Shown: positions 18,546 through 18,760, numbered from the stretch's first letter. The stretch: 32,000 nucleotides of DNA from Methanothermobacter thermautotrophicus str. Delta H (GCF_000008645.1 NC_000916.1:1680001-1712000), one strand, 5' to 3'. Numbers and translations are program-made. The notes: a model not told the origin generated them from the sequence alone.

Positions 18546-18654
18546 AAAAATTTATGACGATTTGGTCTGGGTAGGGTTTGATATTGGATTGGAGGCGGTT
18601 TCAATTCCAATTTAAAAGACCAGAATAAGTTTTAAAAGTCCTGGACCCTACCCG
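18546..18654 (-). ncRNA. Candidate ~110-nt structured RNA (independent sRNA or moaB leader/attenuator); unvalidated
   Basis: A minus-strand BRE/TATA (CGAAAAC-TTTATAAA) lies 23 nt upstream of GGGTAGGGT (18653-18645). That segment pairs with ACCCTACCC (18577-18569). Two internal hairpins are present, one with a CCGCCUCC loop. The element ends at a T5..T4 tract (18550-18537). Confidence 0.3.
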
Positions 18655-18760
18655 TTTACTATATATTAACAGCACTATTTATAAAGTTTTCGTTAGGTTA
18701 TTTAAATCAGCATCTGGGAGCCATAATCCAGTTCAAAGGTTTTAAAACCATTTAAATCCA
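18611..18760. repeat. Five TTTAAA motifs phased at exact multiples of 10 bp, with embedded palindromes
   Basis: TTTAAA starts at 18611, 18631, 18701, 18741 and 18751, and I found no other copy in 18420-18981. Palindromes in the same stretch are GGTTTTAAAACC (18738-18749), ATTTAAAT (18700-18707 and 18750-18757) and AAAAACATGTTTTT (18761-18774). Confidence 0.6.
18678..18692 (-). promoter_or_regulatory. BRE + TATA box candidate (CGAAAAC TTTATAAA read on the minus strand)
   Basis: The palindromic TTTATAAA sits at 18678-18685, with a purine-rich CGAAAAC immediately upstream on the minus strand. The spacing puts a TSS at about 18653-18655. Confidence 0.4.

Follow-up and report, generated by a model that had tools for sequence, protein, structure and literature searches.

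The window analyzed here, a stretch of 32,000 nucleotides, corresponds to positions 1,680,001-1,712,000 of the 1,751,377-bp single-contig genome of Methanothermobacter thermautotrophicus Delta H; unless they are called genome positions, coordinates below are counted from its first nucleotide. Within the window, a 562-bp spacer separates moaB on the minus strand (17880..18419; MoCF_biosynth domain, Pfam PF00994, E = 1.8e-31) from a divergently oriented, nob1-like PIN-domain gene on the plus strand (18982..19497; Pfam PF17146, E = 4.2e-17). The spacer is home to an RNA element on the same strand as its downstream neighbor moaB, which is very probably a real, conserved and independently promoted structured RNA gene whose family has not yet been described. 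The gene order nob1, RNA, moaB and phosphoribosyltransferase is kept in all three families, at all loci examined; since the order of the flanking genes is maintained anyway, the position of the RNA alone cannot choose between an independent small RNA and a moaB leader, the two functions that an earlier note on this DNA had put forward.

The RNA is preceded on the minus strand by an archaeal promoter of the BRE/TATA type, CGAAAAC-TTTATAAA (18678..18692), present exactly where the earlier note had read it. The distance from TTTATAAA to the first G of the closing stem is 24 nt, one more than originally counted. This TATA distance is fixed in all lineages and places the predicted transcription start, with a pyrimidine before it, at the first stem G (18653, minus strand). 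The closing stem P1 consists of a 5′ strand GGGUAGGGU (18645..18653, minus strand; GGGTAGGGT in the DNA) and a 3′ strand ACCCUACCC (18569..18577, minus strand; ACCCTACCC in the DNA), which pair over their full length as had been proposed; predicted folding and covariation agree on both strands. It encloses two hairpins. The first (18620..18644, minus strand), formed in the minimum-free-energy fold by CCAGGA and UUCUGG (18644-18639 with 18625-18620), carries a semi-conserved loop motif, AAACUUAU; although it is present here as predicted, it is only 68.8% paired across the family and missing from several genera. The second, P3 (18583..18611, minus strand), combines an (A)UUGG/CCAA(U) stem with a loop of ca. 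18 nt; it likewise appears in the predicted fold, with CCGCCTCC at 18598-18591, and its stem is 91.7% paired across 27 sequences, with some double changes. The P3 loop contains the proposed seed, the nearly invariant 8-mer CCGCCUCC (18591..18598, minus strand), which is single-stranded in the predicted folds. Runs of five, two and four T residues follow the stem at 18537..18550 (minus strand), in agreement with the initial reading of this tail; they are kept within the genus and constitute a likely archaeal termination signal. If transcription terminates at these T-runs, the RNA is likely to have a length of about 105-117 nt. The minimum-free-energy fold of the segment 18655-18537 contains three helices at -27.8 kcal/mol (z = -3.29), and none of 200 shuffled sequences folded as well. 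An alternative pairing of UGGUCU with AGACCA, which the earlier note had also proposed, had to be abandoned; AGACCA changes to CAATCA or CAACCA within the genus, and this pairing is thus broken without compensation.

Conservation and architecture in Methanobacteriales

The conservation of the spacer was examined by a DNA search of 40 relatives. A block of 171 nt is 94-97% identical within the genus, compared to 80-85% for the whole spacer, and the portion from promoter to stem is the sole part of the spacer that is recognizable outside of the genus, in two other families. Block identity amounts to 75-79% in the second family; in the genera of the third family, the second hairpin and the 3′ stem strand can still be recognized, and the BRE/TATA element aligns without gaps across all three families. 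A covariance model (R1), built from 14 sequences and searched against 151 Methanobacteriales genomes, matched 35 of them with exactly one copy each; its match in genome G147 of genus g8, located inside a coding gene, was discarded as a false positive. The exact pattern of a second architecture (type 2) matched 32 of the 151 genomes, again with one copy each, including two genomes that were also found by R1. Overall, the RNA resides in the nob1-moaB spacer of about 65 of the 151 genomes, representing about 18 of 27 genera. Extending the R1 search to the phylum level brought no additions, while sampling nearly the same genomes as the order-level search; a 14-mer scan of all genome contigs returned random bacterial sequences among the matches listed.

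The type-2 architecture occupies the same spacer in genera g2, g5, g11 and g12. It is composed of a purine-rich 5′ strand GAGGGAGRG and a pyrimidine 3′ strand, the motif AGACUCCU, a hairpin with U-rich and A-rich sides, and ACCGCCUCCGAUUUGGACC. Both architectures share the TATA 8-mer 24 nt ahead of the first stem base, the A-R-A-C-U-Y motif that forms part of the hairpin 1 loop in type 1, oligo-T runs 3′ of the stem (at variable distances in other genera), and the 8-mer itself, which is predicted to be unpaired in the folds of both types. CCGCCUCC is identical in 14 of 14 sequences of alignment A1 and in 26 of the 27 sequences of alignment A2; it is also present in all fetched type-2 copies, a count that has to be read with the qualification that the fetching pattern itself required this 8-mer. 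A type-2 copy in the moaB spacer of genus g8, and likewise one other genome, read CCGCCUCU in its place. Since the 8-mer remains fixed and unpaired while the surrounding helix has been rebuilt between type 1 and type 2, it resembles a base-pairing seed, unlike a ligand pocket.

The closing stem changes by compensation. It is 100% paired in 27 type-1 sequences, and five of its eight pairs have changed on both sides; the covariation score (0.155) exceeds that of shuffled alignments (0.084), none of 500 shuffles reached the observed value, and slid controls scored lower. The covariation in related genomes that the earlier note had suggested as a check is found in the closing stem, and the uncompensated mutations that would have spoken against the structure are not observed there.

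The RNA resembles no described family that was searched for, consistent with the initial assessment. At the gathering threshold, the window was matched by no Rfam model; nothing relevant was obtained in the spacer at E ≤ 10, and six orthologous loci gave no match at E ≤ 1. Several specific identities were tried and rejected. The Moco riboswitch (RF01055) gave no covariance-model match at E ≤ 10 in the window or at E ≤ 1 in the six loci, and the RNA occurs as a single copy with differing internal helices. An archaeal H/ACA guide is contradicted by the variable bases after the stem (AGACCA, CCACCA, AGUUCC, UCCUCA and others) and by the lack of tandem G-A/A-G pairs in the upper hairpin; a box C/D sRNA is contradicted by the absence of C (RUGAUGA) and D (CUGA) boxes between 18537 and 18655, together with the lack of an Rfam match. 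A tRNA or tRNA-like gene was rejected because ARAGORN found no tRNA or tmRNA in the window. An orphan CRISPR repeat, suggested by the ending in ATTGAAAC, was dismissed after 21 matches with at most two mismatches were obtained, compared to 24 for the reversed control. Finally, a 38-codon reading frame that begins with UUG and runs through the RNA is not a convincing coding sequence; the stem substitutions are compensatory, and the frame has no AUG.

Relation to the downstream gene moaB

The second function suggested in the earlier note, a cis-acting leader or attenuator of moaB, would make the RNA the 5′ part of the moaB transcript and its T-runs a conditional stop that sets the extent of read-through, possibly under the influence of a molybdenum- or tungsten-cofactor signal; the released short RNA could still act in trans. 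A leader role is supported by the constant position upstream of moaB and on the same strand in all three families, and by one RNA-library contig (run X5) that extends from moaB up to 18644, with the spacer further upstream not contained in it. Family f3 has only 46-80 nt between the stem and the moaB start, which leaves little room for a separate promoter, and genus g10 has neither moaB nor the RNA; a MoaB homolog was not found in two complete g10 genomes (G028 and G036), and the start motif discussed below is missing from this genus as well. Other observations run against a leader. In Methanothermobacter, a second TATA-like box, CTTATAAAT (18472..18480, minus strand), lies between the RNA and moaB; it is kept within the genus and is the probable moaB promoter. 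In two RNA runs of a single study, the contigs covering moaB terminate at 18438 and 18463, a weak hint in the same direction. The RNA occupies one locus per genome and is not found ahead of other cofactor genes, it matches neither the Moco riboswitch nor any other Rfam model, and its two types have different internal architectures with the 8-mer alone remaining fixed, unlike a ligand pocket. The ribosome-binding regions of moaB are not complementary to the loop, and the conserved position by itself says little where the flanking gene order is kept anyway. On balance, a leader that acts on moaB appears unlikely. Yet the constant location just upstream of moaB speaks against a pure trans role as well, since action in trans leaves it unexplained.

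The RNA-library data consist of assembled contigs, none of which isolates the RNA. The pure-culture runs X7 and X9 have no contig over 18464-18987, a gap that carries no weight, and an RNA of 100 nt is easily lost; the single 20-kb contig of run X1 spans everything and is uninformative. The X5 contig stops at 18644, which is 9 nt into the RNA as counted from its predicted 5′ end, and then continues with 30 unrelated bases; this end could represent an assembly chimera or a template switch that occurred at the stem. The X5 contig and the short spacing in family f3 together make it likely that transcription reads through into moaB to some extent, and the RNA may have a dual role, as a small RNA derived from the 5′ region.

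Two side observations concern the moaB upstream region. The second TATA-like box belongs to a BRE/TATA-like sequence, AAACCAGAAGA-CTTATAAAT (18472-18491, minus strand), that is located about 55-60 nt before the moaB start. The f3 loci L013 and L015 contain AAGGU immediately 3′ of the RNA, AACCUU midway between RNA and moaB, and AAAGGUUUUGAG where moaB has its ribosome-binding region; these elements may pair in mutually exclusive ways and form a small switch before moaB that is independent of the RNA body.

Start regions complementary to the RNA loop

A search of the genome for the complement of the proposed seed identified GGAGGCGG(U), the exact complement of the CCGCCUCC loop, in an unusual and recurrent position. 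Several of the matches in the genome of M. thermautotrophicus share the longer context GGAGGCGGUA-A-AAUU, and each of these sites has its own TATA box and a 5′-UTR hairpin upstream. In six signal-peptide genes of this genome, GGAGGCGG is found 7-8 nt ahead of the apparent start; the apparent start codon, 7-8 nt after GGAGG, is AUU, or AUG in one case. The Transglut_core domain was detected by Pfam in four of these six genes, with or without PMBR repeats. Among the six PF01841 genes of the genome, GGAGGCGG is present in four and GGAGGCGA in one; the remaining gene starts at an ordinary AUG. Genes with the start region GGAGGCGGUA-N-AAUU in this genome, all located outside the window, are L099 (124-1887, minus strand), L100 (77-2218, minus strand), L101 (79-912, minus strand) and L102 (228-932, plus strand).

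The same arrangement recurs in other genera (L106, L110, L121, L124, L127, L129, L131, L133 and L351-L367). In 99 kb of PF01841 loci from four other genera, 10 of 10 GGAGGCGG sites turned out to be such starts. Another 17 sites with the same start region were found in g5, g11 and g12, followed by a signal peptide in 16 cases; the start codon at these 17 sites is AUU in 15 and AUC in 2. Single start-region sites occur in g15, g24 and g25. Overall, at least nine genera have PF01841/PF09373 genes with GGAGGCGG(U) 7-8 nt upstream of the apparent start. In one ortholog, an additional G changes the frame with respect to GGAGG and leaves the spacing to AUU unchanged, and for this reason the start-region motif is regarded as non-coding. 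As a more general observation, secreted PMBR/transglutaminase-like genes throughout the order have an apparent AUU start codon (AUC or AUA in a few cases) at a distance of 7 nt from the Shine-Dalgarno core; the signal peptide follows immediately, and a TATA box of their own and a 5′-UTR hairpin lie upstream. A near-cognate start codon that is used family-wide is unusual in archaea. A literature search found no publication on this RNA or on AUU start regions.

The extent of complementarity distinguishes the loop from the ribosome. The 16S rRNA 3′ end of this genome reads GGAUCACCUCCU and pairs with the site over five bases before a C-A mismatch, whereas the RNA loop can form nine pairs without interruption, as judged from the sequences. 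When the whole 93-nt RNA is compared with the genome, its two longest antisense matches are 15-mers, and both are located at such start regions; since reversed and complement-only controls reach 14, match length alone is not decisive, and it is the position of the matches that is striking. Nine genomes of the genus each contain the 13-mer exactly three times, at the RNA locus and at the two 15-mer sites, compared to zero or one occurrence for the reversed control. At one of the two 15-mer sites, the 5′ UTR has diverged between species outside of the complementary segment, which is kept. Many g8 start regions carry AAUC ahead of GGAGGCGGU and form 13 bp, including one G-U pair, with the g8 RNA.

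The paired ends and large invariant loop of this RNA are also typical of protein-binding RNAs, and its CCUCC is shared with the 16S 3′ end; a stable RNA that is bound by a protein, or that imitates the 3′ end of 16S rRNA, with the CCGCCUCC loop read by a protein (for instance a factor of ribosome maturation or translation such as the neighboring Nob1 nuclease) and not by mRNAs, would fit the divergent position next to nob1 at every locus. This explanation appears improbable. The adjacency to nob1 is part of a generally conserved gene order, the likeness to the 16S end stops at CCUCC, the RNA has no K-turn, ACA box, C/D boxes or tRNA-like features, and the fixed, exact complement in one mRNA family, including CGG, would be left unexplained.

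A related concern is that CCUCC complements any GGAGG site, and that the specific part of the universal match comprises only 3-4 nt (CGG, plus U). With such short core complementarity, the RNA might act in trans on other GGAGG-type targets or have a general role in translation, and the match to transglutaminase genes would be a by-product of Shine-Dalgarno and anti-Shine-Dalgarno cores. The pairs formed by an RNA and the start sites of its own genome are no better than those with RNAs of other genera (-26.1 vs. -25.5 kcal/mol), a lack of own-genome advantage that is compatible with broader targets, and the semi-conserved single-stranded A-R-A-C-U-Y motif has no assigned partner. The target rankings point elsewhere. 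Among 884 GGAGG-type start windows ordered by predicted duplex energy, one of the 15-mer sites takes first place, with a predicted duplex of -36.2 kcal/mol with the seed region, and further sites of the family rank 4, 5, 12 and 16; moreover, the 15-nt matches in Methanothermobacter, the 13-bp match in g8 and the 12-13-bp match of g11 start regions with their own RNA all fall into the same gene family. A role directed at other targets or at translation in general is therefore considered doubtful. As a caveat, the many copies of the start-site motif come from a single paralogous gene family and therefore do not represent independent events. The base next to the seed covaries weakly: opposite an A in the RNA, 11 of 11 sites have U, and opposite a G, 11 of 22 sites have C; exceptions occur in g15 and g25.

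Some individual genes merit separate mention. The gene ranking fifth of 884 encodes a secreted protein of 188 codons with an AUU start and GGAGGCGA, at about genome position 482,529 on the minus strand. L099 is one of the two 15-mer genes and the best-matching candidate target. Its 5′ UTR contains, about 35-20 nt before GGAGG (genome position about 349,620), the sequence ACCCUACC, identical to the 3′ strand of the closing stem; it is thus complementary to the RNA 5′ end, is separated by 9 nt from the 13-mer match that follows, and could be a second contact or a coincidence. The second 15-mer gene, L103 (239-334, plus strand; genome position about 1,320,738), has an ortholog in genome G002 (L087). 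In seven related genomes, its product is a secreted, very basic protein of 161-179 amino acids, rich in lysine, arginine and tyrosine; in this genome and in G002, a frame disruption has cut it to 31 codons, indicating a pseudogene or a sequencing error.

The RNA and the start motif coincide at the genus level. The start-region pattern was found in 82 of 151 genomes, and both elements are present in about 16 genera; neither was found in g6 (35 genomes), g7, g10, g13, g16, g19 and g27, and in five genomes of the RNA-less group the seed-like element was absent except for one match inside a coding region. The clade of g6, g7, g10 and g13 presumably corresponds to Methanobrevibacter and Methanosphaera. 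The transglutaminase genes of the RNA-less group keep the AUU start and read GAGGUGUUAA instead of GGAGGCGGUA. A lone match to the start pattern in g6 proved to be an ordinary AUG gene, and GAGGTGTTAANATT, considered as a start pattern of the RNA-less genera, was rejected because it lacks specificity for them. In genomes of g20, g22 and g23 (93-94% complete), the RNA is present and the start site was not detected. The genera that lack both elements are probably members of one clade with AT-rich genomes, and the co-occurrence may therefore reflect a single event.

Proposed function and comparison with known small RNAs

Since the loop is the exact complement of an unusual ribosome-binding site shared by these genes, the RNA probably limits the translation of the enzymes they encode. 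Specifically, we consider it an even prospect, judged from sequence, that the RNA acts in trans, as a small RNA, and masks GGAGGCGG-type ribosome-binding sites on the mRNAs of exported transglutaminase-like enzymes. Transcription would begin at about G18653 from the BRE/TATA promoter and would mostly stop at the T-runs 20-35 nt past the stem; the 5′ and 3′ parts would pair in the 9-bp closing stem and hold the molecule together, and the internal hairpin would present CCGCCUCC in its loop. The loop could then pair in trans with GGAGGCGG(U), the Shine-Dalgarno region of mRNAs for secreted, pseudomurein-binding transglutaminase-like proteins that apparently start at AUU 7 nt further on. Such pairing would compete with the 16S 3′ end (GGAUCACCUCCU) and would lower the translation of these enzymes; in this model, the two ends of the transcript, in-vivo pairing and the direction of the effect are inferred.

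The earlier note had anticipated an independent small RNA whose exposed CCUCC masks GGAGG sites. This reading is favored over the moaB leader because the promoter and its spacing are kept, because the 8-mer is near-invariant across a changing scaffold, and because its complement is a family-specific Shine-Dalgarno region; the pairing that underlies it is a predicted one. A wider formulation, in which one small RNA and a dedicated AUU start region (GGAGGCGGUA-N-AAUU) form an order-wide pair that is present in most Methanobacteriales, exerts post-transcriptional master control over cell-wall cross-linking and was jointly lost in the clade of g6, g7, g10 and g13, remains tentative, with the chances somewhat against it. 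In a pangenome study, exported transglutaminases emerged as the best candidates for pseudomurein cross-linking (PMC11915815).

The proposed mode of action has a precedent in Methanosarcina mazei, where the archaeal intergenic small RNAs sRNA41 and sRNA154 mask ribosome-binding sites (reviewed in PMC5867862). The RNA described here resembles them in its intergenic location, its own promoter, and an exposed pyrimidine-rich sequence that is directed, as proposed here, against ribosome-binding sites; yet it has no sequence or structural relation to them and comes from the Methanobacteriales. The M. mazei small RNAs target genes of nitrogen and acetyl-CoA pathways, whereas the proposed targets here are exported cell-wall enzymes with apparent AUU starts. 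Among bacteria, RoxS/RsaE uses C-rich loop seeds against the G-rich Shine-Dalgarno regions of several mRNAs, and its seed is conserved more strictly than its scaffold; it has several C-rich motifs and controls a redox and metabolic regulon. The logic of the C-rich seed is similar in the present RNA, but the sequences are unrelated, and RoxS/RsaE is bacterial. The Moco RNA motif (RF01055) is likewise a structured RNA directly upstream of a molybdopterin-biosynthesis gene; in contrast to this bacterial motif, the present RNA has no Rfam match, a single locus, and an architecture that varies between lineages.

We know of few archaeal small RNAs that are conserved beyond a genus, and of almost none with a predicted regulon. 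The RNA described here combines covariation support and a conserved promoter with occurrence in three methanogen families and with a seed that points to a specific gene family; even if the proposed target is wrong, it represents a new structured RNA family that is missing from Rfam. If the target link is true, the RNA would provide a handle on cell-wall synthesis in methanogens that are relevant in the rumen and in biogas production, and it would constitute a natural case of competition between a small RNA and the ribosome at near-cognate (AUU) archaeal start sites.
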